From Anaerolineales bacterium (GTDB lineage Bacteria > Chloroflexota > Anaerolineae > Anaerolineales > E44-bin32): a stretch of 64,000 bases of DNA. The translations under genes were made by a program, and so were the position numbers. Positions 5,944-41,411 of the stretch are shown here, piece by piece. Every line of letters starts with the position of its first letter. Position 1 is the first letter of the stretch. The stretch lies in the NCBI GenBank assembly GCA_049644665.1, contig JBARSI010000155.1:4888-68887 (forward strand), in the 5' to 3' direction. The notes under the pieces are model-generated. The model was not told the origin of the DNA. It did no database searches and saw nothing but the letters and a program-made list of their open reading frames with translations.

Positions 5944-7416
5944 ATGACTGCTCTTACTGACTTCTCCCTCCTGGAAGCTGCTTCCGCTCTGCGTAAAGGA
6001 GATGTCAGTTCCTTAGAATTGACGGAAGCCTGTCTGGATCGCATTGAGGCTCTCGAGCCACAGCTCCACGCATTCCTTTCTCAAACCCCGGATCTGGCGA
6101 TCTCTCAGGCGAAAGCCGCAGATCAACGGCTGCAGGATTGGCGCAAAAACAAAGAAGAGCCGCTGCCCCTCACCCACGGCATCCCGGTCGCCATCAAAGA
6201 TGTGCTGTGCCTCGAGGGAGTTCCAACAACATGTGGTTCCCGCATTCTTGAGGGTTTCCGCCCTCCTTACTCGGCGACGAGCGTCGCAAGATTGATCGAC
6301 ACTGGAGCGGTAGTCCTGGGAAAGACTAATACCGACGAGTTCGCTATGGGATCTTCAACTGAGAACTCGGCGTATGGCACGACACACAACCCATGGGACC
6401 TCGGCCGGGTACCCGGCGGATCATCTGGAGGTTCTGCGGCAGCAGTTGCGGCGCGTATGTGTTTCGCCGCCCTGGGGACGGATACGGGGGGATCCGTGCG
6501 CCAACCTGCTTCCTTCTGCGGGATCACAGGACTAAAAACATCCTACGGGCGTGTTTCCCGCTATGGCTTGATTGCCTACGGATCGTCGCTCGATACCGTC
6601 GGAGCCTTAACGCGCTCCGCGGCCGATCTTCTTCCCCTTTTCACAGCAATGGCAGGCCATGATCCCTTAGACTCAACCTGCATGCCAGATCCCGTCCCAG
6701 AGATCTCTCTGGACGGCAGCGCCCTGACAGGTGTACGAATCGGTGTGCCGAAAGAGTATCTTATCGAAGGTATACAGGACGAAGTTGATGCTGCCGTACG
6801 CGCTGCCGTGAAAGTGTATGAGGCGCTCGGCGCTGAAATCCATGAAGTCAGCCTTCCACACACAGACCTCGCCCTGCCGGTGTATTACCTAATCGCTCCC
6901 GCAGAGGCATCTGCCAACCTGGCCCGTTACGACGCGGTCCGGTTCGGTCCACGCATCAAATCTGAACAATTATGGGACCAATATATCGAAACCCGTGGAA
7001 CTCTCTTTGGTCCTGAGGTCAAACGCCGCATCATGCTCGGGACCTATGCTCTTTCTGCCGGGTATTACGATGCGTATTACGGCCAAGCGCAAAAGGTGCG
7101 GACGCTGATTAAGGGTGATTTCGAAACAGTTTTTAAGGAAGTCGACCTGATCGCCTGCCCCGTCGCACCTACAACGGCGTTCCGCATTGGCGAACACAGC
7201 GACGACCCTCTTGCCATGTACATGGAGGACATCTTCACGCTGCCCGCCAATCTCGCCGGGGTCCCGGGGATGGCTTTTCCAGTAGGATTCGATCAAAATA
7301 GACTGCCGATTGGGATGCAGTTGAATGCACCCCACCTGGGCGAGAGGTCACTTTTCCGCGCGGTTCATACCTACCAAACGCAAACGGACTGGCATCTGCG
7401 CAAACCAAATCTATAG
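5944..7416 (+). CDS. gatA: Asp/Glu-tRNA amidotransferase subunit A
   Basis: Carries the amidase signature GGSSGGSAAAVAA and has GatA length. Confidence 0.95.
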   Translation: MTALTDFSLLEAASALRKGDVSSLELTEACLDRIEALEPQLHAFLSQTPDLAISQAKAADQRLQDWRKNKEEPLPLTHGIPVAIKDVLCLEGVPTTCGSRILEGFRPPYSATSVARLIDTGAVVLGKTNTDEFAMGSSTENSAYGTTHNPWDLGRVPGGSSGGSAAAVAARMCFAALGTDTGGSVRQPASFCGITGLKTSYGRVSRYGLIAYGSSLDTVGALTRSAADLLPLFTAMAGHDPLDSTCMPDPVPEISLDGSALTGVRIGVPKEYLIEGIQDEVDAAVRAAVKVYEALGAEIHEVSLPHTDLALPVYYLIAPAEASANLARYDAVRFGPRIKSEQLWDQYIETRGTLFGPEVKRRIMLGTYALSAGYYDAYYGQAQKVRTLIKGDFETVFKEVDLIACPVAPTTAFRIGEHSDDPLAMYMEDIFTLPANLAGVPGMAFPVGFDQNRLPIGMQLNAPHLGERSLFRAVHTYQTQTDWHLRKPNL

Positions 7417-7438
7417 AGTCAAAGGGAAGGGTACAAAT

Positions 7439-8434
7439 ATGAAAATCGTTATCCCCATGGCTGGCTACGGCACACGATTACGCCCTCATACCTGGTCCAA
7501 ACCCAAACCTCTGGTAAGTGTGGCTGGTAAACCCGTCCTTGGCCATGTCCTCGACATGTTCTCAACCCTGCCTGACATCGATGAAGTGATCTTCATCGTC
7601 GGTTACCTGGGTGACCAAGTCGAGACCTACGTCAGCGAGGTTTACGCTGATTTACCGGCTCGCTACGTTGTCCAGGAGCAGATGCTCGGGCAGTCGCACG
7701 CCATATGGCTCGCCCGTGAGGGGCTTGAGGGTCCGATGTGTATGGCCTTTGTGGATACGATTATCGAGGCTGACCTTTCGTTCCTGCCAACCGAGGAAGC
7801 CGGTGCGGTAGCGTGGGTGAAAGAAGTGGAAGACCCGCGTCGGTTCGGTGTGACCGAAGTTGGTGATGATGGCTGGGTGCGGCGCCTGGTTGAGAAACCA
7901 GAGGATTTGAGAAATAACCTCGCTCTGGCTGGCTTCTATTATTTCAATCGGGCGGAAGCCCTTGTCGCCGCCATCGAAAAGCAAATGCAGCAAGGGGACC
8001 AACTTGGAGGGGAGTTCTACCTCGCCGACGCCATCAACGTGATGCTGGAAGAAGGCCTAAAGATGCGCGTCGAAACCGTTCAGGTTTGGAAAGACTGCGG
8101 TAAACCCGACGCTTTACTCGAAACAAACCGGTACCTACTCGACCACGGGCGGGATAACACCGCAGAGGCGCAGCAACGAGATGGGAGCCTTATCATCCCG
8201 CCGGTGTTCATCCATCCCAGCGCCGAGATATCCCAAGCGGTAATTGGACCACATGTCTCGGTAGGATCCAGATGCGTTATACAGAGATCCGTCATCCAGG
8301 ACTCGATTATTGAGAACGAGACAACCATTGAAAATGCCTTGCTCTCGGAGTCTCTCATTGGGCGAGGCGCCCGGATCACCGGCAGATTTAAGATGCTGAA
8401 CATCGGGGATACATCACAGGTGGATGCGTTATAG
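7439..8434 (+). CDS. Sugar-phosphate nucleotidyltransferase with a C-terminal left-handed beta-helix
   Basis: MKIVIPMAGYGTRLRPHTWSKPKPL is the G-x-G-T-R-L motif. An internal ATG at 7439 is preceded by aaagggaagg. The track ORF start at 7325 overlaps gatA. Confidence 0.8.
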   Translation: MKIVIPMAGYGTRLRPHTWSKPKPLVSVAGKPVLGHVLDMFSTLPDIDEVIFIVGYLGDQVETYVSEVYADLPARYVVQEQMLGQSHAIWLAREGLEGPMCMAFVDTIIEADLSFLPTEEAGAVAWVKEVEDPRRFGVTEVGDDGWVRRLVEKPEDLRNNLALAGFYYFNRAEALVAAIEKQMQQGDQLGGEFYLADAINVMLEEGLKMRVETVQVWKDCGKPDALLETNRYLLDHGRDNTAEAQQRDGSLIIPPVFIHPSAEISQAVIGPHVSVGSRCVIQRSVIQDSIIENETTIENALLSESLIGRGARITGRFKMLNIGDTSQVDAL

Positions 8435-8557
8435 TCGCTCGCGATCAAAGGGATGCTGCCGAAGAAGATCTCCCGAAAAATGCTCTGTTCCCTCGATAAT
8501 AATCTCGAAACATGGCCCTTGCGGGATCGGGAAGAACATCGTCCCCCGCATGGCTAA

Positions 8558-8833
8558 GTGCCACTGGCAACCCTATCCGAATTATCCGACGATGTGGACA
8601 ACACTGGACTTATTCCGATGGAACACAATCCCGTCGAATGTCTCTCGGGGCATACCTACGCTGAGCGCCCGATTGCTCTTTGGTGGGAGGGGGAACGATT
8701 AAACATCATCGAGATCGAAGCCCGTTGGCGAATTCCCGGCGGACGTCGTTTCAGGGTGCGGACTGAGACCGGTCAGATTTTTGAACTGTTTTATATCGAT
8801 CTACAAGATGAGTGGCAGATTTCGCTCTTATGA
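8558..8833 (+). CDS. Small hypothetical protein
   Basis: 91-codon ORF with a GTG start (alternative ATG at 8618). No domain recognised. Fits the gap between flanking genes. Confidence 0.4.
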   Translation: MPLATLSELSDDVDNTGLIPMEHNPVECLSGHTYAERPIALWWEGERLNIIEIEARWRIPGGRRFRVRTETGQIFELFYIDLQDEWQISLL

Positions 8834-8951
8834 GCTTTAACCATCTTCCACTTATCAATCAGCGACCTGAAAAACCTTGTCCCGCAAGAATTCGGTGTAC
8901 AGGGATTACAAAAAGAGATCTTTACCTTTAAGACCAGAGGAGTAAAACAGA

Positions 8952-10109
8952 ATGCGTGATTTCGTCGCTCGCCGCATCGCCGGGGTTCCCCCTTCAGGAA
9001 TACGCCGTTTCTTCGACATTGCCGCCACGATGGATGACGTGGTTTCGTTGGGTATTGGCGAGCCTGACTTCGTCACGCCGGAACCCATTCTGAAAGCGGG
9101 GATTAAATCCCTGGAGCAGGGAAAGACACATTACACATCCAACTCGGGCATCCCTGAGCTGCGCCAGGCACTCGCAGAGCACTTAAACCAACTTTACGAT
9201 GTCATCTATGATCCGGAGGACGAGATCCTCGTCACTGTTGGTGTATCGGAAGCGCTTTACCTGGCGCTTGCCGCAGTGCTCGATCCGGGCGATGAAGTCA
9301 TCGTGCCCACACCATGTTTTGTTTCCTACCAGCCAGAGGTAATCTTCGCCGGCGGCACACCCGTTGTCCTGAAAACACATGTAGAGGATGACTTCCAGGT
9401 TTCGGCGTCTGATCTTAAAGCGCTCATAACCCCTAAAACCAAGGCTCTTCTTTTCGGTTATCCCAACAACCCAACCGGCGCAGTGATGAGCCGCGAACGC
9501 CTTCAGGCACTCGCCGAGGTCGCCAAGGAGCATGACCTGCTGGTAATCTCCGATGAGATTTACGATCGCCTCGTGTATGACCACGAACACGTCTGCATCG
9601 CTTCTTTGGATGGGATGCACGATCGGACGATCACACTCGGCGGCTTCTCAAAAGATTACGCCATGACTGGCTGGCGGATAGGTTACGCCGCCGCCCCATC
9701 TCCCATCCTCGGCGCAATGCGCAAGATACACCAATACACCATCATGTCCGCGCCGACAGTATCGCAAGTCGCGGCGCTCGAAGCGCTGCGGATTGGAAAT
9801 GAACACGTCGAGATGATGGTTGCTGAGTACAACCGCCGGCGGCGGCTTATCGTCGACGGTTTTAACGAATTGGGACTCAAGACCTTCGAGCCTCGCGGCG
9901 CTTTCTATGCTTTCCCTTCAGTGGAGGCCAGCGGAATGGAGGATGAGGCTTTCGCCGAGAGGCTGCTCGATGAGGAACGCGTCGCCGTCATCCCTGGCAA
10001 CGCCTTTGGCGCCGATGGGAATTTCGTCCGCTGTTCGTATGCGACTTCATACGAGAAGATTGAGGAGGCGCTGGAGCGAATGCGCCGCTTCATGCAGCGG
10101 CACGGCTGA
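8952..10109 (+). CDS. Class I/II PLP-dependent aminotransferase (aspartate aminotransferase-like)
   Basis: Contains SKDYAMTGWRIGY (PLP-Lys motif) and NPTG. A good SD (agaggag) precedes the ATG. Confidence 0.85.
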   Translation: MRDFVARRIAGVPPSGIRRFFDIAATMDDVVSLGIGEPDFVTPEPILKAGIKSLEQGKTHYTSNSGIPELRQALAEHLNQLYDVIYDPEDEILVTVGVSEALYLALAAVLDPGDEVIVPTPCFVSYQPEVIFAGGTPVVLKTHVEDDFQVSASDLKALITPKTKALLFGYPNNPTGAVMSRERLQALAEVAKEHDLLVISDEIYDRLVYDHEHVCIASLDGMHDRTITLGGFSKDYAMTGWRIGYAAAPSPILGAMRKIHQYTIMSAPTVSQVAALEALRIGNEHVEMMVAEYNRRRRLIVDGFNELGLKTFEPRGAFYAFPSVEASGMEDEAFAERLLDEERVAVIPGNAFGADGNFVRCSYATSYEKIEEALERMRRFMQRHG

Positions 10110-10183
10110 TGTCGGTCGAAGACGGAGTGAAGATATCCATCGTCATTTTATAAACTCGCCTACCGCTGGTATCCTTGTATCCA

Positions 10184-11635
10184 ATGACAAACTCAGCCTT
10201 CGAACCCGTTATCGGCTTAGAGGTGCACGCCGAACTGCTCACGCAGTCGAAGATGTTCTGCGGCTGCGCCGTTGTTGATTCAACAATCGCTGAACCGAAC
10301 ACTTCCGTCTGTGAGATATGCACCGGTATGCCCGGTACGCTTCCGGTTATTAATGAGCGGGCCATCGAGTTCGCCTTGCGAGTTGCCCTGGCTCTGCATT
10401 GTACTATCTCCGAAACGAGCGTGTTTGCACGTAAGAATTACTTTTATCCCGACCTCCCCAAGGGTTACCAGATCTCACAATTCGAACTCCCATTAGCACA
10501 TGATGGCTGGCTCGCCATAGAGACCGAAGCCGGGGAGAAGCGTATCCGCATCCGCCGCGTCCACCTTGAAGAGGATACCGGGAAGCTCTTCCATCGCCAA
10601 GGATATTCGCTCGTCGATTTCAACCGCTCCGGTGTTCCGCTGCTGGAGATCGTCAGCGAACCTGATCTCAGTTCCATAGAAGAGGCAAAGATCTATACAA
10701 CCTCTCTTCGGTCCGTGCTCCGCTATTTGGAGGTGACCAGTGGAGATATGGAGAAGGGTGTCATCCGCTTTGAGGCGAACATCTCCGTCCGCCAAGCGGG
10801 TTCAACCGAGCTGGGCATTCGCACGGAAATCAAGAATCTAAACTCCTTCCGGGCGATGACCCACGCTCTCGCTTATGAGGTCGAGCGCCAGAGTAATATT
10901 CTAAAAGAGGGCGGTGAGATCTCTCAGGAGACTCTCGGCTGGGACGAGGCCAGTTCAAGCACAGTCTCTCAGCGCAGCAAAGAAGAGGCGCATGACTACC
11001 GGTACTTCCCCGAACCCGATTTGCCTCCGCTTCACGTCGAACCGGCTTGGGTTGCGCAGATTCAATCCGAATTGCCAGAACTCCCGCTGGGAAAAAGGCG
11101 GAGGTTCGTGGCGGAATATGGGCTCACAGCCTATGCAGCCGGCGTCCTTACTACCGAGCGTTCGATCGGCGATTATTTTGAGGCCGCTGTAAAATCTGCC
11201 CCCAAGGTGCCTCCGGTAAAAATCGCCAATTGGCTCTCCGGCGACCTCTTCGGTCTGTTGAATCAAGCTGGCATCGAGTTCCAGGACAATGCCATCCCAC
11301 CCGTAGATCTCGCTCGCCTGGTTGAGATGGTCGAATCCGGCGAGGTCAACGCCACGAGCTCTAAAACTGCACTGGCGGAGATGGTCTCATCAGGGAAGCC
11401 CCCTGATGACATCGTCCGCTCTCTTGATCTGAGCATGATCCATGATCCCAAGGTGATTGAGGGAATTGTTCGCCGTGTTCTCGACGAGAATCCTATTCAG
11501 GTAGCGGATTACCTGGGCGGCAATACGGGAGTTCTCCAGTGGCTCTTCGGTCAAATTATGAAGGATGCTGATGGCCGCGCCAATCCAGCAGCCGTGCGCA
11601 CCGCCTTGAGCTCCGCCTTGCATACACTGGAGTAG
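10184..11635 (+). CDS. gatB: Asp/Glu-tRNA amidotransferase subunit B
   Basis: Contains [26 protein letters not shown] and a C-terminal YqeY-like tail. The start may be TTG 10175 or ATG 10184. Confidence 0.9.
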
Positions 11636-31000: not shown

Positions 31001-31039
31001 CTTTTAGGGAGGTGGAGTTAATTGTTAAGGGGAAGCAGG

Positions 31040-31726
31040 ATGAAAGAGCTGCATGAGTTCGCCGAGAGCGAAGAGATGTATTTGAAGACAATTGCCGAGA
31101 TTTCTCGTCATGGAAATCTTGTTCCGGTTACAAATATCGCTGACCGGCTTCGTATCTCGACCGTTTCCGCAAGCGAAATGGTACACCGCCTGCAGGATCG
31201 CGGTTTGCTTGAGCACACACCATACAAGGGTGTGAGGCTGACGGCTGATGGCCGGGATCGGGCGAATGGCATACTGCGCCGACACCGCTTATGGGAATGC
31301 TTTTTGATGGAACACCTCGAGCTTCCTTGGAATCTGGTACACGATCTTGCCTGCAAATTAGAGCATGTTAGCGAGGATGTGTTGACGGATGCATTGGATG
31401 AGTTCCTTGGCCTCCCTTCTTTTTGCCCACATGGCAACCCCATCCCGCCCTCCCGTGGTGTCCTTGAAATTAGGGCGGCAACGCCGCTTTCTGATCTCGA
31501 TGTTGGACAGGAGGGAGTCGTCCTGTGTATCCGCGAGGAGGAAACTGAGATATTGAAGTATCTTGATGCTCGCACAGTCCGACCCGGAAGCCGGGTTCGA
31601 ATCGAGGAGATAGCACCGTATGATGGACCTCGCTCGGTCTTGGTGGGAGGAGAAAAGCAGGTTCTGGGCCGTGAGGTAGCAGAGCATATTCTCGTCGAGT
31701 TAGTGCACGAAAATGAAACGGAGTGA
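31040..31726 (+). CDS. DtxR/IdeR-family metal-dependent repressor with a C-terminal SH3/FeoA-like domain (Fe-type ligand set)
   Basis: The strings EEMYLKTIAEIS, RRHRLWECFL and VHDLACKLEHVS correspond to DtxR M10, H79, E83, H98, C102, E105 and H106. Confidence 0.8.
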   Translation: MKELHEFAESEEMYLKTIAEISRHGNLVPVTNIADRLRISTVSASEMVHRLQDRGLLEHTPYKGVRLTADGRDRANGILRRHRLWECFLMEHLELPWNLVHDLACKLEHVSEDVLTDALDEFLGLPSFCPHGNPIPPSRGVLEIRAATPLSDLDVGQEGVVLCIREEETEILKYLDARTVRPGSRVRIEEIAPYDGPRSVLVGGEKQVLGREVAEHILVELVHENETE

Positions 31727-31729
31727 CTT

Positions 31730-32149
31730 TTGAGCCCAGACACAGAACGCGAATATAAAATCAGACTTCTCGGCGATGTGCCATCTGGTGGTCGCGTGCG
31801 CATGGTTGGGTTTGCGCGCCATGGCAGGAGATCTCGGCGCCTGGCAGAAATGGGAATTAACCCTGGTACTGAAATCACGGTTATTCAGGCGGATCCCGGG
31901 CAACCGCTGTTGCTGAGGGTGCGCGGATCACAGTTGGCGATTGATCGCATGGTAGCTAATCATTTACTCGTCGTCCCTCTGGAGGCGATGCCTAAATTGT
32001 TACATGGGTGGAGGGGCTGGCACCGCCGCGGCCGCGGGGGTGGTCCAAGAGGGCGCGGGTGGAGAAGCGGCCGACCTCGAAGGGGGAGAAATAAAGCATT
32101 CCATGATGTTGCCCCGCTGCGAGCCGATAGAGATGAAGATGAAGCGTAA
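31730..32149 (+). CDS. feoA: FeoA-domain protein with a 55-aa Arg/Gly-rich C-terminal tail
   Basis: TTG start. FeoA fold string VRMVGFARHGRRSRRLAEMGINPGTEITVIQADPGQPLLLRVRGSQLAIDRMVANHLLV. There is no stop until 32149. Confidence 0.65.
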   Translation: MSPDTEREYKIRLLGDVPSGGRVRMVGFARHGRRSRRLAEMGINPGTEITVIQADPGQPLLLRVRGSQLAIDRMVANHLLVVPLEAMPKLLHGWRGWHRRGRGGGPRGRGWRSGRPRRGRNKAFHDVAPLRADRDEDEA

Positions 32150-32681
32150 TGCGGATCTAATAATTGCTTTGGCCGGCAACCCAAATGCCGGAAAAACCAC
32201 GGTATTTAATCGACTCACCGGCTCGCGGCAGCATACCGGGAACTGGCCCGGAAAAACGATTGAACGGAAAAGCGGGCGATACAAGCACGCCGGCTTGTCG
32301 ATAGAGGTCGTTGACCTTCCGGGGACGTACAGTCTGGCGGCGTATTCCGAAGAGGAGATTGTGGCGCGCGATTTTCTACTTGAGGGACAATCGGACGCCG
32401 TTGTGGTCGTGGTAGACGCCTCAAATCTTGAGCGAAACTTATATCTTGTAGTGCAGATCCTTGAGTTGCAGCTTCCAGTCCTCGTAGCTTTGAACATGAC
32501 GGATATGGCAGAGATGATTGGTTTCGAGATTGATGTCGAAAAAATGTCAGATGGGCTGGGCGGTGTCCCGGTGATCCGAATGGCAGCCGCTCGCGGGATG
32601 GGGATTGAAGAATTGAAAGAAGCGATACTCCTTTACACGAAAGAACAAGTCATAAACCCTTCGCCGGACCCGATTGTATGA
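32133..32681 (+). CDS. feoB: FeoB N-terminal GTPase domain as a stand-alone ORF
   Basis: G1 is GNPNAGKT, G3 is DLPG and G4 is NMTD. Ends with an ATGA overlap onto the next ORF. The start is ambiguous (32103, 32133 or 32139). Confidence 0.8.
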   Translation: MKMKRNADLIIALAGNPNAGKTTVFNRLTGSRQHTGNWPGKTIERKSGRYKHAGLSIEVVDLPGTYSLAAYSEEEIVARDFLLEGQSDAVVVVVDASNLERNLYLVVQILELQLPVLVALNMTDMAEMIGFEIDVEKMSDGLGGVPVIRMAAARGMGIEELKEAILLYTKEQVINPSPDPIV

Positions 32682-34378
32682 CGAACCCTGACTCCAAACC
32701 TGCTTTTCAGATCGATTATGGACTTGTGATCGAGCCTGAAATTGAGAAACTGAGAGCGCTCATTGAAGAGCGCTTCGTGCTCCCGGATCAAATTAAATCG
32801 CGCTGGCTTGCTGTAAAGGCGCTTGAAGGGGAGACAGATCTTCTCGAGCACTTTCTCGGTGTCGAAGATGCCCGTGTTGTACTCGCACAGGTTCATACGA
32901 TCCGCAAGCGGCTCGAGGCGCAGATCCCCGAAGGGCTGGAGATTGCCATTGCTGACGGCCGCTATGAGCGTGTGGGTAGGATTGTGGAACATTCACTTAC
33001 GCGCCCTAAGGAACCTGCCCACTCGCGCGCAGAGCAGGCAGACCGGATTGTCACTCATCCGTGGTTGGGAATCCCGATATTTATGGTCGTGATGTATCTG
33101 GTCTTCAGCCTGGTTGTGAACGTATCAGAGCCGTACCTGGAGTGGATCGACGCGGTTATTTCGGGGCCGATTTCAAGCTGGGCAGGAGCTTTGCTTTCTC
33201 TAATTGGTGCCTCCACCTGGTTGCGTGGGTTAATCCTGGATGGCGCGATTGCGGGCGTCGGTGGTGTTCTGATTTTTGTCCCAGGTCTCGTGGTTTTGTT
33301 TGCTTTCATCGGTCTACTAGAGGATAGCGGGTATTTGGCCCGTATAGCGTTTGTGATGAATCGCTTCCTCGCATTCTTGGGCCTAAACGGTAAGAGCTTT
33401 GTGCCATTAATTCTTGGCTTTGGCTGTGCGGTCCCAGGGATTTATGCCACGCGAACGCTGGAGGGACGCCGTGACCGTTTACTCACGGCGTTGCTGGTGC
33501 CGTTGATGTCGTGCTCGGCGCGGCTTCCTGTGTATGTTGTGTTTGGGATGGCTTTCTTCGGCCGAAGCGCGGATCGGGTCATATGGGGTTTATACGCGCT
33601 CGGAATTGCAATGGCGGTCTTGTTGGGTTTTCTATACTCGCGCACGTTGCTTCGATCTTCTGAAGAGATGGCTTTCCTGATGGAGTTGCCCTCTTATCGC
33701 CTGCCAAGAGTGAGCAATTTGTGGATCCATGTCTCGCTGAGGACGGGCGAATTTCTGCGCAACGCAGGGACATTAATCCTGGCTGCATCTCTGGCTGTAT
33801 GGCTGCTTCTGAACGTTCCGCCTAAAGCTACAGAATTAGAGCAGAGCGCATTTGGGAAAGTCAGCGGTTTTGTCGCCCCCGTGCTGAAACCAACGGGTTT
33901 TGGGACCTGGGAGGCTTCAGGATCGCTATTAACAGGCATGGTCGCCAAAGAGCTTGTGATCGCGACGATGACACAGATCTATCTGGATGAGCCCGGAGAG
34001 AGCGAAGCAGAAAGTGAGATCGATCCGTTTCAGGACCTGGTAGATATTGGAAGGGGCTTTGTCGGGGCTACTATTCGCGCAGGGGAGCGGTTATTGGACA
34101 CCCTCACTCCCGGGGTCCAACTCTTTGGAGGCGAAGGCGAGAGAGAAGAAGAGGGTACGGCACTCAGTTTTGTATTACACGAGTCCTTCACCCCTCTTTC
34201 CGCTCTGGCGTTCATCGTATTCGTCTCGCTTTACACGCCCTGCATGGCCACGCTGGGGGCCATCCGCGCGGAATTCGGTGGGTGGTGGGCGGTCTTTTCC
34301 GCGGTAAGCCAGACCGGGATGGCCTGGCTTGTAGCGACGCTTATTTTTCAACTGGGCCATTTGTTAGGTTTTTCCTAA
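32678..34378 (+). CDS. feoB: FeoB helical (GDI-like) domain plus membrane domain
   Basis: About 10 helices with the Gate motifs GFGCAVPGIYATRTL and LYTPCMATLGAI. Confidence 0.85.
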   Translation: MTNPDSKPAFQIDYGLVIEPEIEKLRALIEERFVLPDQIKSRWLAVKALEGETDLLEHFLGVEDARVVLAQVHTIRKRLEAQIPEGLEIAIADGRYERVGRIVEHSLTRPKEPAHSRAEQADRIVTHPWLGIPIFMVVMYLVFSLVVNVSEPYLEWIDAVISGPISSWAGALLSLIGASTWLRGLILDGAIAGVGGVLIFVPGLVVLFAFIGLLEDSGYLARIAFVMNRFLAFLGLNGKSFVPLILGFGCAVPGIYATRTLEGRRDRLLTALLVPLMSCSARLPVYVVFGMAFFGRSADRVIWGLYALGIAMAVLLGFLYSRTLLRSSEEMAFLMELPSYRLPRVSNLWIHVSLRTGEFLRNAGTLILAASLAVWLLLNVPPKATELEQSAFGKVSGFVAPVLKPTGFGTWEASGSLLTGMVAKELVIATMTQIYLDEPGESEAESEIDPFQDLVDIGRGFVGATIRAGERLLDTLTPGVQLFGGEGEREEEGTALSFVLHESFTPLSALAFIVFVSLYTPCMATLGAIRAEFGGWWAVFSAVSQTGMAWLVATLIFQLGHLLGFS

Positions 34379-34398
34379 GCGAGGAACAGAAAGAATCT

Positions 34399-34698
34399 AT
34401 GCTGGCACAAATCCTGGCGGAATTTGATCGCGAACGAAGCCCTCTATCGAGCCGTGAGTTGGCAAGTGTGCTCGGCAAAGACCTCGCAGCAATTGAGGGA
34501 ATGCTTGAAACGCTGGTGAGGTCAGGACGGTTGGTGGAACTGGGGAATGATGGACCCTGTGATAAATGTCCAGCACAAGGTCTTTGTATTGTTCTCCCAC
34601 TTGAGGGGCGCCGATTTTACCTTGTGCCGCACGAAGGGACGGAGATCCTCGAAGAACACGGATATTGTTGGGAAGCAAGAGATCGAGGAAGGGCATAG
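34399..34698 (+). CDS. feoC: FeoC-like small winged-helix protein with a Cys cluster
   Basis: MLAQILAEFDRERSPLSSRELASVLGKDLAAIEGMLETLVRSGRLV followed by GPCDKCPAQGLC. SD gaggaaca lies upstream of ATG 34399. Confidence 0.6.
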   Translation: MLAQILAEFDRERSPLSSRELASVLGKDLAAIEGMLETLVRSGRLVELGNDGPCDKCPAQGLCIVLPLEGRRFYLVPHEGTEILEEHGYCWEARDRGRA

Positions 34699-35459
34699 TG
34701 AACCTGTATTCTTGGAACGTTAACGGCATACGCGCGGCCCAGAAGAAGGGATTCTTGGAATGGGTGACCAAGACGCGCCCTGATGTGATTTGCCTCCAGG
34801 AGACAAAGGCGCAACCCGAGCAACTGGATCAAACTTTGCTCGAGCCAGAGGGCTACAAATCTTATTGGGCATCGGCAGAACGCAAAGGGTACAGCGGGGT
34901 CGCTCTGTATACCCGAATTGAACCGATGAGTGTGCAGGTGGGCCTTAGGATAGAGGAGTTCGACCGCGAGGGCCGAACCATCCTGGCAGATTACGATGAT
35001 TTTGTCCTGCTGACGACCTATGTTCCTAACGGCTCCCGCGACCACAGTCGGGTTCCTTTCAAAATGGCATATAAAAAGGCGCTGCTCGATACTTGCAACG
35101 CCCTGCGATCCGAAGGCCGCAGCGTAATATTCTGTGGTGATATCAACACGGCTCATCGCGAGATAGACCTGGCGCGCCCCAAACAGAACCAGAAATCGAC
35201 CGGCTTCCTCCCCGTCGAGAGGGAGTGGATCGATGCCGTCGTCGAACAAGGCTACATCGACACCTTCCGCGAACAGCACCCCGAGCGTGCCGCGTATAGC
35301 TGGTGGGCTTATTGGGGCGGAGCGCGCGAGCGCGATGTGGGTTGGCGGCTGGACTACTTCTTCGTCACCGCGGATCTCGCAGAAAATATTATCTCCGCTG
35401 AAATACATCTTGACGTCCTTGGCTCGGATCATTGCCCGGTCAGCCTGACGCTCCGTTGA
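34698..35459 (+). CDS. xth: Exodeoxyribonuclease III
   Basis: Contains NVNGIRA, CLQETK, GDINTAHREIDL and SDHCPV. GTG 34698 overlaps the feoC stop by 1 nt and follows GAGGAAGGG. Confidence 0.9.
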   Translation: MNLYSWNVNGIRAAQKKGFLEWVTKTRPDVICLQETKAQPEQLDQTLLEPEGYKSYWASAERKGYSGVALYTRIEPMSVQVGLRIEEFDREGRTILADYDDFVLLTTYVPNGSRDHSRVPFKMAYKKALLDTCNALRSEGRSVIFCGDINTAHREIDLARPKQNQKSTGFLPVEREWIDAVVEQGYIDTFREQHPERAAYSWWAYWGGARERDVGWRLDYFFVTADLAENIISAEIHLDVLGSDHCPVSLTLR

Positions 35460-35534
35460 TGTACGATCTGGGTTAAACGGTCTTCTCCCTCGATCGAGTT
35501 ACCCCTTATTCCCCAAAATAGATTGCACCCGCTC

Positions 35535-35586
35535 TTGACAGACGCACACTTTAATGCAAGATAGTAGTTAGTAGACGAACTACTAT
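35535..35586 (+). promoter_or_regulatory. Candidate promoter (TTGACA -35) with a perfect 9-bp inverted repeat, ATAGTAGTT-N8-AACTACTAT, over the -10/TSS region
   Basis: TTGACA lies at ~35535-35540. The dyad lies at ~35561-35586, 17 nt upstream of the trmB-like ATG. Confidence 0.45.
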
Positions 35587-35602
35587 TCTGGGCGAGGCGG
35601 AT

Positions 35603-36406
35603 ATGGATCTGGTTGCTGAGTTAAATAGCATTGGTTTTACAGAATCTGAGGCGAAGGTGTACCTCGTATTGCTGCGCAACAACCCGGCCACGGGCTATCA
35701 ATTAAGTAAAGTGTCTGGTGTGCCGCGCTCGATGGTGTATGAGGCCCTCGGCCGCCTTGACGCGCGTGGTGCAGTGTTGAAATCTGCCGAGGCGAAAGCC
35801 ACGCTCTATCGTCCCCTCCCTCCGGAGGCCTTGTTAGAGAGCGTGAACATGGAGCACCACAGAAAGATGCAGTCGCTTTCAGGCGGCCTCTCTCGCATCT
35901 ATGAAACCGGATCGGGGGATCTTCTCTGGACGATTACGGGAGAGACTTCAGCGATCTCCTATGCCGCCGATATGATTCAATCGGCACAGACCGAGTTAAT
36001 GCTTGTGCTCTCTGACCCGGGGTTGATGGAACTTCAAGATGTGGTGCAGGTTGCATGCGATCGCGGTGTTCGCGTAAGTGCTTTGCTCACGGGCGACCTT
36101 AAGTTGGGGTGCGGAGAGGTGGCGTACCACCCGCCGCATGAGAGTGAGCTGCAGGAATTAACCGACACCATTGTTGTGGTGGCAGATGAGCAGGAAGCTT
36201 TGATTGCCAGCGGGAACGAAGAGATGAGCGCCACGGTCACAACCAATCGCAACCTGGTCTTGATCGCCCGCCAATTTGTCTGGATGGAATTGTTTGCTCA
36301 GCGAATCTACTCTCGCCTTGATAAGGATTTGATTGCCAAATTAAACCCAGAGGACCAAAAGCTAATTAATGGATTCGCACCAGTGATGGGAAAGCGGGTG
36401 GGCTGA
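35603..36406 (+). CDS. TrmB-family transcriptional regulator
   Basis: N-terminal HTH LNSIGFTESEAKVYLVLLRNNPATGYQLSKVSGVPRSMVYEALGRLDARGAV, plus a TrmB-type C-terminal domain. Confidence 0.8.
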   Translation: MDLVAELNSIGFTESEAKVYLVLLRNNPATGYQLSKVSGVPRSMVYEALGRLDARGAVLKSAEAKATLYRPLPPEALLESVNMEHHRKMQSLSGGLSRIYETGSGDLLWTITGETSAISYAADMIQSAQTELMLVLSDPGLMELQDVVQVACDRGVRVSALLTGDLKLGCGEVAYHPPHESELQELTDTIVVVADEQEALIASGNEEMSATVTTNRNLVLIARQFVWMELFAQRIYSRLDKDLIAKLNPEDQKLINGFAPVMGKRVG

Positions 36407-36407
36407 A

Positions 36408-37157
36408 ATGGAAGCATCCCTATTAAATGCCTTCTGGGCGGCAGTGATCACCACGTTGGCGACGGGGCTTGGCGGGTTGCCCTTCGTCTTTATGCGCCGT
36501 TTTCCTGCCCGGCTTGCTCACTTGGCATGGGCAGTCGCCGGCGGGATGATGCTTGCGGCGTCTGTTTTTAACCTGATCTTCCCCGGGATCGAGGATGGTG
36601 GATTCAACATCGTAGCCGTCGGCATGCTCGCTGGAGCCCTGATCTTCGGCCTGGCCTCGCGGCGGATAGCGCACCACGATTTTACAATAAGCGGGGTGAG
36701 CGGCGCGGGAGGGAATCGCATCGCTCTGGTTCTTGGGACAATGTTCTTCCACAGCTTTCCCGAAGGCCTGGCGGTAGGCGTAGCTTTCGGATCGGGGGAA
36801 ACCCACCTGGGCATAATCATCACTATCGCCATCGCAATTCACAACATACCCGAGGGAATTGCGGTCTCACTGCCGCTGCGCGCCGAGGGGGTCAGCGGCT
36901 GGAAGTGTGTCGGCTGGTCAATATTCTCGAGCTTGCCTCAGCCGATAGCGGTGATTCCAGCCTACCTGGCCGTGGTTGCATTTCGACCGATTCTTCCCTT
37001 CGCCTTTGGTTTCGCAGCCGGGGCGATGTTCTTTCTCGTCCTCAGCGAGATGATCCCGGAGAGCCTGGCCAGCGATGTGCAGCGGCAAACGAGCGCGCTG
37101 GCAGCAATGGGCGGATTCATCGCCATGATGCTCTTTCAGAACGTATTCATTATGTGA
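36408..37157 (+). CDS. zupT: ZIP-family divalent metal transporter (ZupT-like)
   Basis: Contains HSFPEGLAVG and HNIPEGIAV, with 8 helices. Starts 1 nt after the regulator's stop. Confidence 0.85.
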   Translation: MEASLLNAFWAAVITTLATGLGGLPFVFMRRFPARLAHLAWAVAGGMMLAASVFNLIFPGIEDGGFNIVAVGMLAGALIFGLASRRIAHHDFTISGVSGAGGNRIALVLGTMFFHSFPEGLAVGVAFGSGETHLGIIITIAIAIHNIPEGIAVSLPLRAEGVSGWKCVGWSIFSSLPQPIAVIPAYLAVVAFRPILPFAFGFAAGAMFFLVLSEMIPESLASDVQRQTSALAAMGGFIAMMLFQNVFIM

Positions 37158-37170
37158 TCCTGTCCTCCTC

Positions 37171-37200
37171 TTGTAATTTAGTTTCAACTAATATTATAAT
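37171..37200 (+). promoter_or_regulatory. Sigma-70-type promoter (TTGTAA-N18-TATAAT) with the inverted repeat TTAGTT-tc-AACTAA in the spacer
   Basis: The repeat sits at ~37178-37191, between the -35 (37171-76) and the -10 (37195-200). The leader to ATG 37357 is about 150 nt. Confidence 0.5.
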
Positions 37201-37356
37201 AAGGCCATACTTAATTCTCGAATTGGTTGATCCGCTTCACCATGTTGAGAATCTCCACAGGACCACCCGCGCTCAGGGCGTTAAGGGGCACGGAGGGATT
37301 CTTACAGGGGTTGGCCACGAGGCAGGGAATGTGTTCCGAAAGGAAACGAGAGCGGT

Positions 37357-38367
37357 ATGAGTGATTCGTTAATAACACTGTTAATTGGACTTGGCATGCT
37401 ATCTATCGGCCTGTGGTTTCTTTGGCCGGAGGACGGTCTTTTTGCGCGCTGGCAGCGGGGGCGAAAGATGAACGCCCGCATCCGCCGCGAGGACGCATTG
37501 AAACACATCCACAGCTGTGATATGGGCGGATCACCGGCATCGATCCAGAGCATTGCCGGCGCATTAGGAGTCCACCTCAACGAGGCGTTAGCTACACTAT
37601 CTGAGCTTGAAGCGCATAATTTGGCACTTATAAGCAACGGCGGTATCCGCTTGACGCCCGCAGGTCGTGAGTCGGCGCTGTATATTTTACGGGCACATCG
37701 CATGTGGGAGCGATACCTGGCAGATGAGACTGGATACAGCGAACAGGAATGGCATGATATCGCCGAGCGTTATGAACACGAACTGACACCCTCTGAGGTT
37801 GAAGCGCTCTCAGCGCGCTTGGGGTATCCCACACATGATCCACACGGGGACCCCATACCCGCGGCAGATGGTGAGATTGTCCATCATGGTGGTGAGCCGC
37901 TCACCGCAGCCGAGGTTGATGTCCCCCTGCGCATCGTACACCTTGAGGATGAGCCGGACGTGGTCTACGCTCAGCTCGTCGCCGAAGGGTTGCACCCAGG
38001 CATGATTCTGCGTCTCGTCGAACGAACGCCCGAGCGGCTGCGCTTCTGGGCCGGGGGTGACGAACACACCCTGGCTCCAGTGGTCGCGGCGAATATCTCT
38101 GTCTTGGCTCTTGCCATGGCGGAGGCTGAGGAACCCGTCGGCAAGCCGTTGAGCCACTTACAGTCCGGCGAATCAGCTGTTGTCCTATCGATTTCACCGG
38201 CAAGTCGTGGTCTGGATCGTCAACGGTTGCTCGACTTGGGCCTGTTGCCGGGAACCAAAGTGGGCGTCGAGTTGGTTGGTCCGGGTGGAGATCCGAAAGC
38301 CTACCGGATACGAGGAGCGCTGATCGCTCTGCGACAAGACCAGGCCAATCGCATATTGGTTGAATGA
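37357..38367 (+). CDS. DtxR-family regulator (Mn-type ligand set) with an N-terminal hydrophobic helix, an SH3-like domain and a terminal FeoA domain
   Basis: LITLLIGLGMLSIGLWFLW is followed by RWQRGRK. The ligand strings are REDALKHIH, RAHRMWERYL and WHDIAERYEHELT. C-terminal FeoA string: SGESAVVLSISPASRGLDRQRLLDLGLLPGTKVGVELVGPGGDPKAYRIRGALIALRQDQANRILV. Confidence 0.75.
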   Translation: MSDSLITLLIGLGMLSIGLWFLWPEDGLFARWQRGRKMNARIRREDALKHIHSCDMGGSPASIQSIAGALGVHLNEALATLSELEAHNLALISNGGIRLTPAGRESALYILRAHRMWERYLADETGYSEQEWHDIAERYEHELTPSEVEALSARLGYPTHDPHGDPIPAADGEIVHHGGEPLTAAEVDVPLRIVHLEDEPDVVYAQLVAEGLHPGMILRLVERTPERLRFWAGGDEHTLAPVVAANISVLALAMAEAEEPVGKPLSHLQSGESAVVLSISPASRGLDRQRLLDLGLLPGTKVGVELVGPGGDPKAYRIRGALIALRQDQANRILVE

Positions 38368-38379
38368 GGAGTGAGTGGG

Positions 38380-39222
38380 ATGGTAGATAAGAAAAAGAAT
38401 GCTCCGCTGGACGAATGTGCAAGCTGCCCAGTACATAATGCTGCAAACCTATTGAAGCTGGGTGTCGACATGCAGGATTGGGATTATGTCGTCGCACTGG
38501 CGGGTAATCCCAATACCGGAAAAAGTACCGTGTTTAATGCCCTCACAGGTCTACACCAGCACACAGGCAATTGGCCTGGGAAGACTGTCACCCGGGCCGA
38601 AGGTGGCTTTGAGTACGCCGATCGGCGCTTTAAATTAGTGGACCTTCCCGGCACATATTCGCTGTTATCGATCTCGCTCGATGAGGAGATCGCCCGGGAT
38701 TTCATCCTCTTTGGTCAACCGGACGTCACCGTGGTGGTTGTGGACGCAACTCGATTGGAGCGGAATCTGAACCTGGTGATCCAGGTATTGGAGATTACCG
38801 ATCGGGCTGTCATCTGTCTGAATTTAATGGACGAGGCTCACCGCCACGGGTTGGTGGTGGATGAACGCAGCCTTTCACGCGATCTGGGTGTTCCTGTTGT
38901 GCCCACATCGGCGCGTTATGACAAGGGACTGGATGAATTGGTTGCAACGATTAGTAACGTCGCTTCCGGTAAGTTCGCATACCGTCCGCACAGAATCCAG
39001 GCAGTCTCGCGCGCGCTGGAAAGCTCTATCAAGACCCTAACCAAAGAAGTGAGAACGGTCTACCCGGATCTACCAAATCCCCGTTGGGTGGCGATGCGCC
39101 TCCTCGATGGAGATGAACGAATCATCGAGGCAATAATCAAGGGCGAATTGGGTGACCTGAGACAAGCGGACGATGAAATCTCGGGCGCGGACATGGGGCA
39201 GATGCAGGAGGCAGTTTCGTGA
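38380..39222 (+). CDS. FeoB-paralogue GTPase domain plus part of the helical domain, as a stand-alone ORF
   Basis: Contains [13 protein letters not shown] and NLMD. GAGGAG lies 8 nt upstream of ATG 38380. Ends in a GTGA overlap with the next ORF. Confidence 0.8.
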
Positions 39223-40658
39223 GCGGGAAGCGAGCGGCATCTCCCGAGAAACTCTTGAAGTCTGCCCAGGCACTCCGCTGGGAGGTGGGCAGCAACGTGC
39301 ATGAGGCGCTCACCGAGGCCATATACACTGACGCGGCGAGCATTGCCGATCGAGCCGTGAGACGCTCTGATGTGAGTCCGAAGTTTGATCTCGATCGGAC
39401 GATTGACAAGATCGTGACTCACCGGTTCTGGGGATTCCCGGTCATGATCCTGCTCTTCGCTCTCGTCTTCTGGATCACCATCACCGGGGCGAATGTTCCC
39501 TCTGGTTGGCTCGCCTCTCTGCTGCTTGGAAAAGGGCATCCCTGGTTGTCGGAAGTCGCCTTGTTGCTAGGCTTCCCGCTCTGGTTGAAAGGGCTGCTGA
39601 TTGACGGGATGTACCTTGCAACAGCCTGGGTTATTAGCGTGATGCTGCCACCGATGGCGATCTTCTTCCCGCTTTTCACCCTATTAGAGGACTTCGGGTA
39701 CTTGCCGCGCGTTGCTTTCAACTTGGATAACGCTTTTAAGAAATCCGGCGCTCATGGCAAACAGGCGCTCAGCATGATGATGGGCTTCGGCTGCAACGCC
39801 GCCGGTGTGATCGCAACGCGCATAATCGATAGTCCGCGCGAAAGGCTCATCGCCATCATCACCAATAACTTCGCACTCTGCAACGGCCGATGGCCGACCC
39901 AGATCCTTTTAGCGACGATCTTTATCGGCGCCCTGGTTCCCGCTCAACTCGCAGGGATCATCTCCTCCCTCGCGGTAGTTGGGATAGCCGTTTTGGGAGT
40001 CTTATTAACTTTCCTTGCCAACTTGATACTCTCGCGCACGATGCTCCGCGGGCAGCCATCCAGTTTCAGCATGGAACTTCCGCCATATCGGCCGCCGCGA
40101 ATCTTGCAGACGATCTATACCTCGCTCATAGATCGAACAATCTATGTGCTTTGGCGGGCAATCGTGTTTGCGATGCCGGCGGGCGCTGTAATCTGGTTGA
40201 GCGCGAATATCACCGTCAGTGGAGTGACACTAGCCGAGCACCTCGTTCGCTTCCTCAACCCCGCGGGCATCCTCTTAGGATTGAATGGGGTGATTTTACT
40301 GGCTTATGTCGTTGCCATCCCGGCGAATGAAATCGTCATTCCAACGATCTTGATGTTGACTGTTTTGATGACCGGCGCTTCGGGTTTTGATGCTGGGGAA
40401 GGGGTTATGTTTGAGCTTGACTCGAATGCGAGTACTTTGGCCCTGCTTCAGGCAGGAGGTTGGACATTGCTGACGGCGGTAAATTTGATGTTGTTCAGCC
40501 TGGTGCACAACCCCTGCAGTACGACAATCTACACGATCTATAAAGAAACCGGAAGTTTGAAATGGACCACCGTGGCGACGATTATGCCCGTTATATTAGG
40601 TGTTCTGATGACATTCTTTGTGGCTCAGATATGGCGGGTTGTGGCTGGTTTTCTGTGA
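39219..40658 (+). CDS. FeoB-paralogue membrane domain
   Basis: Contains [15 protein letters not shown] and [12 protein letters not shown]. About 10 helices. Confidence 0.8.
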
Positions 40659-40736
40659 TCGTATCTACGACGTGGTTGTTTGTGCCACATGTTAGTTGAC
40701 CGATCCCGAATCAGAGCGGACGAGCGGAGTTAGATT

Positions 40737-41411
40737 ATGCGCGAACAGCTAACGCATGCACACGAGGACTATCTTAAGGCCATCTATAAGTTATCGGCCA
40801 TAGGCGGGCGAGCCACGACGACGGAGCTTGCCAAGCTATTAAACGTCACCCCAGCCTCGGTCACCGGAATGGTACAGAGACTGGCGAGCGACGATCCCTC
40901 TTGGGTCGATTATCAGAAACACCGTGGGGTCTCGCTAACTCCGCAAGGAGAACGTGCGGCGCTGGAGATCATCCGCCATCATCGTTTGATAGAGATGTTC
41001 TTGCATGAGATCCTTGGTTACCCATGGGAAGAAGTACATGATGAAGCGGAACGACTGGAGCATGTGATCTCTGAGAAATTTGAGGAGCGGATCGCCAAGG
41101 TATTGGGTGACCCCACTCACGACCCTCATGGGGACCCCATCCCCACGCGCGATCTAAAAATCCCTCCAGCATGTGATATGCGCTTGAGTGATTTGCGCCC
41201 GGATCAACAGGCAATGGTCATGAGGGTGCACGATTCAGACTCTGATTTTCTACGACACCTTGCCGGGTTGGGACTGAAGCCGGAGACGAAGCTATCAATT
41301 CTGGAGCATTCCCCTTTCGACGATAACCTGAAGATTCAAGTCAACGGTCAGCCTGAGCCGATAATACTGGGGAGAAAGATCACACAGCAAGTTTTTGTAG
41401 ATATCATCTAG
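40737..41411 (+). CDS. DtxR/MntR-family repressor with an SH3/FeoA-like C-terminal domain (Mn-type ligand set)
   Basis: Contains HEDYLKAIYKLS (Asp at the DtxR M10 position), RHHRLIEMFL and VHDEAERLEHVIS (Glu at the C102 position). Confidence 0.8.
   Translation: MREQLTHAHEDYLKAIYKLSAIGGRATTTELAKLLNVTPASVTGMVQRLASDDPSWVDYQKHRGVSLTPQGERAALEIIRHHRLIEMFLHEILGYPWEEVHDEAERLEHVISEKFEERIAKVLGDPTHDPHGDPIPTRDLKIPPACDMRLSDLRPDQQAMVMRVHDSDSDFLRHLAGLGLKPETKLSILEHSPFDDNLKIQVNGQPEPIILGRKITQQVFVDII

Follow-up and report, generated by a model that had tools for sequence, protein, structure and literature searches.

The closest characterised relative of the protein described here is PgMntR (PG1044) of Porphyromonas gingivalis, a member of the twin-FeoA subfamily of the DtxR proteins (Zhang et al., 2016, PMC4805248), and the subfamily as such is already known. 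In this study, we analyzed a related gene located at positions 37357-38367 on the forward strand of a 64-kb stretch of DNA from an Anaerolineales bacterium (contig JBARSI010000155.1; henceforth "the window"), together with the genes and regulatory sites around it. The target open reading frame (ORF) was found as an earlier note on this DNA had described it, starting with ATG and encoding 336 amino acids (aa) plus the stop codon. We propose that its product is a membrane-anchored, metal-sensing FeoA subunit that would feed back on the FeoB transporter encoded downstream, and assign a probability of about 0.5 to this reading.

The sequence comparisons with PgMntR rest on a machine-read version of the supplementary figure (S1 Fig) of the original paper, so that those concerning the recognition helix are tentative. 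The PgMntR gene lies in the operon of FeoB2, a manganese transporter, and the protein binds three Mn or two Fe ions per monomer with high (picomolar-to-nanomolar) affinity and dimerises without metal (PMC4805248). When the second FeoA domain was removed, Mn binding and DNA binding were both lost; because the removal abolishes Mn binding, the domain appears to be coupled to the metal sites. The same paper reported 41 full-length homologues in three phyla, and its supplementary alignment shows hydrophobic N-termini in the sequences of Formosa, Melioribacter, Capnocytophaga, Cytophaga, Ignavibacterium, Thermophagus, Roseiflexus and Anaerolinea, and none in those of Porphyromonas, Prevotella, Tannerella and Opitutaceae. 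The passages of the paper covered here propose no FeoA role for PgMntR towards FeoB2. In the literature searched, a single further paper refers to PgMntR by name. As for FeoA itself, that of Bacteroides fragilis FeoAB binds the G domain in a way that depends on the nucleotide, and slows GTP hydrolysis (PMC8980893). The survey of FeoA fusions in the latter study excluded DtxR-FeoA architectures, and a study of Feo evolution makes no mention of them.

The target shares the twin-FeoA architecture. Pfam recognized Fe_dep_repr_C (PF02742) at residues 100-168 (3e-25) and FeoA (PF04023) at residues 264-336 (7.6e-19; 68 bits against a cut-off of 23), and the Thermus-type MntR model of NCBIfam aligned to residues 45-250, below its own cut-off. 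In the AlphaFold2 model, which was built from a 32-sequence alignment and has a mean pLDDT (predicted local distance difference test score) of 87, a helix at residues 4-22 and a short break at 23-27 are followed by a continuous long helix at 28-57, a helix-turn-helix (HTH) of the winged type, the dimerisation helices, a beta domain (190-251), a low-confidence linker and a second beta domain at 273-335. The top matches of this model in the PDB by Foldseek were MntR of M. tuberculosis, ScaR, SloR, IdeR, DtxR and DR2539 (E-values of 1e-16 to 1e-10); DR2539 of Deinococcus displayed 39-40% identity and a root-mean-square deviation of 1.3 A over ~135 aligned residues, and ~210 columns of the target aligned with full-length MntR, ScaR and IdeR. 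A sequence search of the PDB agreed with Foldseek and matched the last domain to the FeoA structures 2k4y, 2k5f and 7r7b. Altogether, the portion common to DtxR proteins comprises a winged-helix domain (residues 45-100; 37489-37656), a dimerisation and metal-binding domain (residues 101-170; 37657-37866) and a first SH3-like domain (residues 186-252; 37912-38112), which corresponds to the third domain that DtxR usually has and carries an invariant H-x-EDEP...AQ motif. A second, genuine FeoA domain (residues 264-336; 38146-38364) completes the chain. The earlier note had read the C-terminal half as an SH3-like domain and then a bona fide FeoA domain, and both assignments held.

What sets the target apart from an ordinary member of the subfamily is its N-terminus. 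The note had pointed to a hydrophobic helix at residues 5-23 followed by a positive cluster, and the best Kyte-Doolittle window of 19 residues indeed falls on residues 4-22 (2.13), coinciding with the first helix of the AlphaFold2 model. We place the single transmembrane anchor at residues 4-23 (37366-37425). The tail in front of it is merely four residues long (MSDS; net charge of -1), and the juxtamembrane linker behind it (residues 24-44, PEDGLFARWQRGRKMNARIRR; 37426-37488) bears a net charge of +5, beginning with WP-x-x-G and continuing as a basic helix (RWQRGRKMNARIRR) that runs into helix alpha1 of the DtxR core. Elsewhere in the protein, no comparable hydrophobic helix was predicted. 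A second hydrophobic peak at residues 237-257 (Kyte-Doolittle 1.77) was considered as a membrane helix and rejected, as AlphaFold2 gives a beta strand plus linker there. We also rejected a signal peptide, given an N-region that is acidic or neutral, a hydrophobic stretch of 19-20 residues, a strongly positive segment after it and the lack of a lipobox Cys.

The helix is retained across a broad range of relatives. Among the 120 best database matches, which were 55-92% identical to the target and derived mostly from Anaerolineae and other Chloroflexota, all of the 119 full-length homologues have a hydrophobic helix at the same place, followed by the conserved motif F/L-W/R-P-x-x-G-L-x-x-R-W-x-R. 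In the family alignment, M1, P24 and G27 do not vary, and at least 90% of the sequences have W32 and R41. For a wider sample, one genome per species was scanned and 73 loci with a family member were obtained. These relatives are distributed over at least eight phyla, namely Chloroflexota, Ignavibacteriota, Acidobacteriota, Gemmatimonadota, Bacteroidota (including cultured Maribacter strains), Verrucomicrobiota, Calditrichota and Actinomycetota. Five of the 73 sequences are fragments, 63 possess the helix and five were scored as lacking it, leaving the helix in 63/68 assessable loci. A separate search with the N-terminal 105 residues gave 293 clusters (at 50% identity) at E <= 1e-3 and 66 at E <= 1e-10; many of the matches are fragments, and the counts are to be taken as a rough lower bound. 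The top match in this search, a 1745-aa repeat protein (P0121) with 22 weak matches to residues 44-87, looks secreted and unrelated, and is probably spurious.

One of the five helix-less sequences (L026) is cut at the start of its contig. The other four (L061, L066, L069 and L075), which belong to Verrucomicrobiota, an unclassified bacterium and Gemmatimonadota, have stop codons upstream, and the closest relatives of each carry the helix; we thus regard them as secondary losses of the anchor. L075 retains a remnant of the helix end (AFWYRFRP). We conclude from these sequences that the anchor disappeared on several occasions, Porphyromonas, Prevotella and Tannerella being further cases. In the 63 loci with the helix, the N-terminal tail is on average 4.3 residues long with a charge of -0.46, the 20 residues after the helix have a mean charge of +4.56, and in most loci across phyla, 21 residues separate the helix end from the ED.LK motif. 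Given its presence in 119/119 homologues and 63/68 loci, the helix is not a product of chance; it is kept across phyla while its own sequence drifts, and the charges on its two sides fit the positive-inside rule, which suggests an N-out/C-in topology. We are therefore highly confident in predicting an N-out, C-in membrane anchor with a connector of fixed length and the bulk of the protein in the cytoplasm, and the tether suspected in the note gains from the conservation of the helix. The homologues show the opposite of the pattern that would have counted against the note, namely a uniform start at the equivalent of Met38 without the hydrophobic segment.

The C-terminal domain is tied to FeoB by its genomic context. 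The target is followed on the same strand by the gene for the N-terminal FeoB polypeptide (FeoB-N; G domain plus helical domain; 38371-39222; Pfam FeoB_N, 1.5e-60), the likely start of which is the ATG at 38380. Between the target stop and the earliest possible start of FeoB-N there are 3 nt, and GAGGAG, the Shine-Dalgarno sequence of FeoB-N, overlaps the target stop codon TGA (38365-38367). The gene for the membrane polypeptide (39219-40658, forward strand; Pfam Gate and FeoB_C) then overlaps the stop of FeoB-N by 4 nt. Across the family, a member gene lies directly 5' of feoB in all of the 64 loci for which the downstream DNA was available; FeoB is split in 44 of them and a single polypeptide of ~750 aa in 20, and the family gene and feoB often overlap by 4 nt. 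The fused form was seen in Acidobacteriota, Gemmatimonadota and other phyla. None of the 64 loci possesses a separate feoA within 7 kb. The note had stated that this Feo system of the window has no feoA gene of its own, and no stand-alone FeoA frame was found between 34300 and 41700. Furthermore, the locus L071 of Actinomycetospora chlora JCM 17979 (6965-10243) encodes an unfused MntR of 239 aa, a FeoA of 79 aa, FeoB-N and FeoB-C, and the last domain of the target, but not the first SH3-like domain, matches this FeoA (56% identity). The arrangement in L071 looks like the state before the fusion. The strict linkage to feoB, the lack of a separate feoA and the likeness to the FeoA of L071 together lead us to consider the last domain as the FeoA of this Feo system, and we predict with good confidence that it serves as the partner of the downstream FeoB. 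FeoB in its GTP-bound form is stabilised by FeoA in one natural fusion of the two proteins (PMC8980893).

The set of metal ligands is intact. The ligands were tested at the DtxR positions M10/D8, H79, E83, H98, C/E102, E105 and H106, and the target carries a metal ligand at every one of them. D46 in the winged-helix domain and H114, E118, H133, E140 and H141 in the dimerisation domain are invariant or nearly so in the family, and position 137, also in the dimerisation domain, is Glu or Asp in 88% of the members. With Asp46 and Glu137, the set resembles that of Mn-type (MntR-like) sensors. Metal binding has thus very probably been retained. Beside D46, the family has a motif of its own, EDALK-H-I-H-x-C-E (37504-37521), which includes H50, H52, C54 and E55. 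Relative to D46, H50 and C54 occupy i+4 and i+8 and share its face of helix alpha1; the canonical neighbours have A/T/S and L/I, respectively, at these positions. The two residues may constitute an extra metal site or a new interface.

The residues that read DNA have degenerated. The earlier note had assumed a complete DtxR-like HTH along with the metal core; the fold and the metal ligands were borne out, but not the DNA-contact residues. The Pfam model of the DtxR DNA-binding domain (PF01325) found no match in the target protein. We mapped the contacts seen between DR2539 and DNA (bioRxiv 10.1101/2024.02.12.579695) onto the target through a HMMER alignment, and only two of the 12 positions are kept, S26 (S62 in the target) and Q28 (Q64). 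At the remaining positions, Y12 is replaced by A47, T27 by I63, A37 by H73, P38 by L74, A39 by N75, S40 by E76, T42 by L78, R46 by S82, K47 by E83 and Y59 by N94. The winged HTH of the target has a net charge of -4.

To place the target in its family, the sequence entropy of 70 phylogenetically broad members was compared with that of 45 canonical DtxR/MntR proteins whose genes lie in these loci as well. The entropy of the family is higher in the turn and recognition helix (2.60 vs 1.55 bits) and in the wing (2.37 vs 1.61 bits), whereas it is lower in helix alpha1 (1.59 vs 1.77 bits) and helix alpha2 (1.76 vs 2.01 bits), and the dimerisation domain is equally conserved in the two groups (1.44 vs 1.37 bits). 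The elevation is thus selective for the recognition helix and wing. P-A-S-V-T-x-M-x-K/R-K/R and the Tyr of the wing are preserved in the canonical proteins, whereas the anchored family has no consensus there. On these sequence grounds, we lean towards the prediction that specific DNA binding has been lost in the anchored family.

The operator in front of the target gene is, on the other hand, conserved. In the 199-nt gap between the upstream ZIP transporter gene and the target, the best promoter-like site consists of TTGTAA at 37171 and TATAAT at 37195-37200 with an 18-nt spacer (37171-37200, forward strand; 10/12 consensus matches), an assignment made by consensus match only. A pattern search found a perfect DtxR-type palindrome, TTAGTTTCAACTAA (TTAG-N6-CTAA), inside the spacer at 37178-37191. 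The box occurs once in the window, and as 34% of shuffled windows hold at least one, its significance comes only from the enrichment across loci. Boxes of the same class were found just 5' of the first gene of the operon, which is either the anchored gene or a canonical regulator placed ahead of it, in 30/69 related loci of many phyla (for instance, at 6245 in L034, 6185 in L059 and 6298 in L065). The DNA upstream of the operon makes up 4% of the total and contains 32 of the 43 boxes, a 66-fold enrichment (binomial p = 4e-35). The consensus, aT-TTAGGC-wa-GCCTAA-At (ATTTAGGCwaGCCTAAAT), is of the DtxR/IdeR type. We regard the box as a conserved predicted DtxR/IdeR-type operator of this class of FeoB. 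As for the ~150-nt leader (37205-37356), a riboswitch was considered and rejected; Rfam gave no match at E <= 1 and the folding was no better than that of shuffled sequences (z = -0.33).

Conservation of the operator requires a reading head that is conserved as well. This is the case for the canonical neighbours alone, which favours a canonical paralogue as the reader. Canonical DtxR/MntR genes (~220 aa) were found in 37/73 loci, directly upstream on the same strand in 23 of them. The window contains a soluble regulator of this kind downstream of FeoB, at 40737-41411 on the forward strand (224 aa; intact HTH; Pfam PF01325, PF02742 and FeoA; NCBIfam MntR, 4.7e-67), and this regulator likely reads the operator.

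Altogether, we propose the following. The single-pass, N-out/C-in twin-FeoA member of the DtxR/MntR proteins would act as a FeoA-type accessory subunit of the (split) FeoB encoded downstream. Its dimeric DtxR core would bind Mn2+ or Fe2+ in the cytoplasm, and metal occupancy would alter the engagement of the FeoB G domain by the C-terminal FeoA domain, so that import might be adjusted after translation to the metal already in the cell, a form of product feedback. The anchor and the fixed linker of 21 residues would hold the sensor beside the transporter. Transcription of the operon would be controlled separately, the operator probably being read by a canonical soluble paralogue such as that at 40737-41411. 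Coupling of transport to metal sensing is likely under this proposal, and coupling to transcription through the target protein itself is doubtful. We tentatively extend the proposal to the whole branch of at least eight phyla, which may have given up sequence-specific DNA binding and been re-used as an anchored metal-sensing subunit gating FeoB via FeoA, with less confidence than for the target protein.

Several observations weigh against this proposal. PgMntR, the only relative that has been characterised, shifts its own promoter fragment but not two control fragments in electrophoretic mobility shift assays, and Mn2+ improves the binding (PMC4805248). The shift requires 0.7-1 uM protein, persists with the apo-protein in 1 mM EDTA and depends on the basic second FeoA domain (PMC4805248). 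The winged-helix fold is retained in the family, and as helices alpha1 and alpha2 are more conserved than in the canonical regulators, the winged-helix domain must still do something. The Arg-rich linker could contact DNA phosphates. Finally, ~17 loci have the operator directly 5' of the anchored gene and no canonical regulator within 7 kb, and autoregulation by the anchored protein is possible in these loci.

These points converge on the alternative that the earlier note preferred, a membrane-tethered repressor that also supplies FeoA and couples transport to transcription. In its explicit form, the protein would be a metal-dependent autorepressor that binds TTAG-N6-CTAA while anchored, like ToxR or CadC. 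The tether and the FeoA role stand, the latter with the linkage to feoB in 64/64 loci; it is the word "repressor" that the data do not favour. The operator does lie in the promoter of the target gene, and the basic linker sits at the place at which DR2539 contacts the DNA backbone with its N-terminal residues. Nevertheless, 10 of the 12 contact positions are replaced in a winged HTH of negative net charge, the recognition helix is variable in the family though the operator is conserved, and canonical regulators with a conserved reading head occur in half of the loci, including the cluster of the window. Furthermore, only ~16-20 residues separate the bilayer from the N-terminus of alpha1 in the target, the part that in DR2539 lies on the DNA. 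The binding of PgMntR to its own promoter fragment supports a tethered autorepressor, which we consider rather unlikely but the strongest rival of our proposal.

The DtxR core could instead take up imported Mn2+ or Fe2+ where it leaves FeoB in the cytoplasm, as a metal acceptor or chaperone that hands it on rather than working as a switch. Several intact metal sites held at the membrane beside the transporter, H50 and C54 on the same helical face as D46 and the three Mn or two Fe bound per PgMntR monomer would suit such a role. The affinities of PgMntR are better suited for sensing than for hand-over, and the idea is without a known precedent in the DtxR family, which makes it improbable, though nothing in the data separates a metal acceptor from the feedback proposed above.

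Slightly poorer still is the prospect of an anchored pro-repressor that is freed by proteolysis as a soluble DtxR-type repressor, like YtgC-YtgR of Chlamydia. A membrane-fused DtxR-like domain freed by cleavage is a documented precedent, and such permease-repressor fusions have been reported in 11 phyla (PMC5599777). However, the DNA-reading residues are degenerate in the target, the linker is a conserved continuous helix (pLDDT of 86-93 by 10-residue block) rather than a flexible cleavage region, and there is neither a periplasmic or intramembrane sensing domain in the protein nor a protease gene in the conserved neighbourhood. Anchor-less members arose several times with the rest of the protein unchanged, which also argues against a release mechanism. 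Translation from the in-frame ATG of Met38 (37468), which the earlier note offered as a second option and which would make the hydrophobic segment an untranslated leader of an ordinary soluble regulator, can be set aside as very improbable, since the Met38 column is variable in relatives (L, V, S, I or T), the upstream frame is open and encodes the hydrophobic helix with the invariant M1, P24 and G27 in homologues down to ~40% identity, and, although anchor-less relatives such as PgMntR do exist, those in L061, L066, L069 and L075 have upstream stop codons and nearest relatives with the helix.

The target is part of a dense cluster of metal-related genes. The genes immediately upstream encode a TrmB-type regulator (35603-36406) and the ZIP transporter (36408-37157), both identified by Pfam. 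A second Feo system, encoded at 31022-34378, comprises a DtxR of its own, FeoA as a separate protein and FeoB in split form, and an unrelated ORF (34665-35459) separates the two systems. The ~10 kb at 31022-41411 thus combine two Feo systems with a ZIP transporter, a TrmB-type regulator and genes for three DtxR-family proteins, of which one (31022) is of the Cys type, one is the anchored target and one (40737) is of the Glu type. The locus resembles the division between FeoB1 (Fe) and FeoB2 (Mn) in P. gingivalis. FeoB is composed of a G-domain and a membrane polypeptide, the genes of which overlap by 4 nt, in both systems (32004-34378 and 38371-40658). The FeoA ORF of the other system (31730-32149) has a long Arg/Gly-rich tail (…HGWRGWHRRGRGGGPRGRGWRSGRPRRGRNK…), which overlaps the longest FeoB-N ORF (from 32004) by ~146 nt; either the tail is genuine, or one start or end of FeoA or FeoB-N was miscalled. 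A 12-nt inverted repeat (ATAGTAGTTAGT / ACGAACTACTAT; 92% complementary with a 2-nt gap) at 35561-35586, just 5' of the gene for the TrmB-type regulator, may be the operator of this regulator.

The regulation of FeoB and the actual role of FeoA are long-standing questions in bacterial iron and manganese uptake. The family described here joins FeoA to a metal sensor and, as predicted, pins both to the membrane beside FeoB in many phyla; Melioribacter, Ignavibacterium, Anaerolinea and Roseiflexus are among the genera with relatives listed in the supplement of the PgMntR paper. Direct control of the transporter by the sensor would demonstrate post-translational metal feedback in Feo. For Feo transport, this would be the first mechanism of product feedback (akin to trans-inhibition) to be described, and it would offer a natural handle on the function of FeoA and represent a transcription-factor fold turned into a transporter subunit. 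In that case, hundreds of proteins annotated as "DtxR family transcriptional regulator" would need re-annotation. The data on PgMntR also merit re-reading; the DNA binding is weak, persists without metal and depends on the second FeoA domain.

In the literature searched, we found no description of the anchor or of how nearly universal it is, of the strict association with a feoB devoid of feoA, or of the decayed DNA-reading head. Of the known systems, PgMntR resembles the target the most, sharing the order of domains (DtxR core, SH3/FeoA-like domain and second FeoA domain), the operon with a FeoB (FeoB2) that has no FeoA of its own, mixed Mn/Fe-type ligands and, tentatively from S1 Fig, a recognition helix that is family-like rather than canonical. 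PgMntR (310 aa) starts ~18 residues before the ED.LK motif and has no membrane helix, whereas the target is anchored, and it has Cys at the position of Glu137 in the target. It has been treated as a soluble repressor, and the main text of the paper does not mention a transmembrane or hydrophobic segment (PMC4805248).

The last domain of the target is comparable to stand-alone FeoA and the FeoA of B. fragilis FeoAB in that it passes the FeoA threshold of Pfam, adopts an SH3-like fold and is encoded 5' of feoB with translational coupling. The difference is that FeoA in the target is neither fused to FeoB nor on its own, but fused to a membrane-anchored metal sensor. With the canonical repressors (DtxR, IdeR, MntR, ScaR and DR2539), the target shares the three-domain fold, the positions of the metal ligands and the type of the operator in the promoter. 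What they lack is the membrane helix at the N-terminus with its basic linker and the additional FeoA domain, and the DNA contacts of the target are largely replaced and unconserved.

Two membrane-associated systems are also worth comparing. YtgC-YtgR of Chlamydia resembles the target in that a DtxR-like domain is joined to a membrane element of a metal importer (PMC5599777). YtgR is located at the C-terminus of a multi-pass ABC permease and becomes a repressor after cleavage (PMC5599777), whereas the target has a single N-terminal anchor helix, no permease domain and no sign of cleavage. ToxR and CadC are, like the target, single-pass membrane proteins with a cytoplasmic winged-helix domain (PMC6320335, PMC7888679). 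In ToxR and CadC, however, the DNA-binding domain, the helix and a periplasmic sensor are arranged in that order, whereas the target exposes only ~4 residues to the outside and is predicted to sense metal in the cytoplasm.

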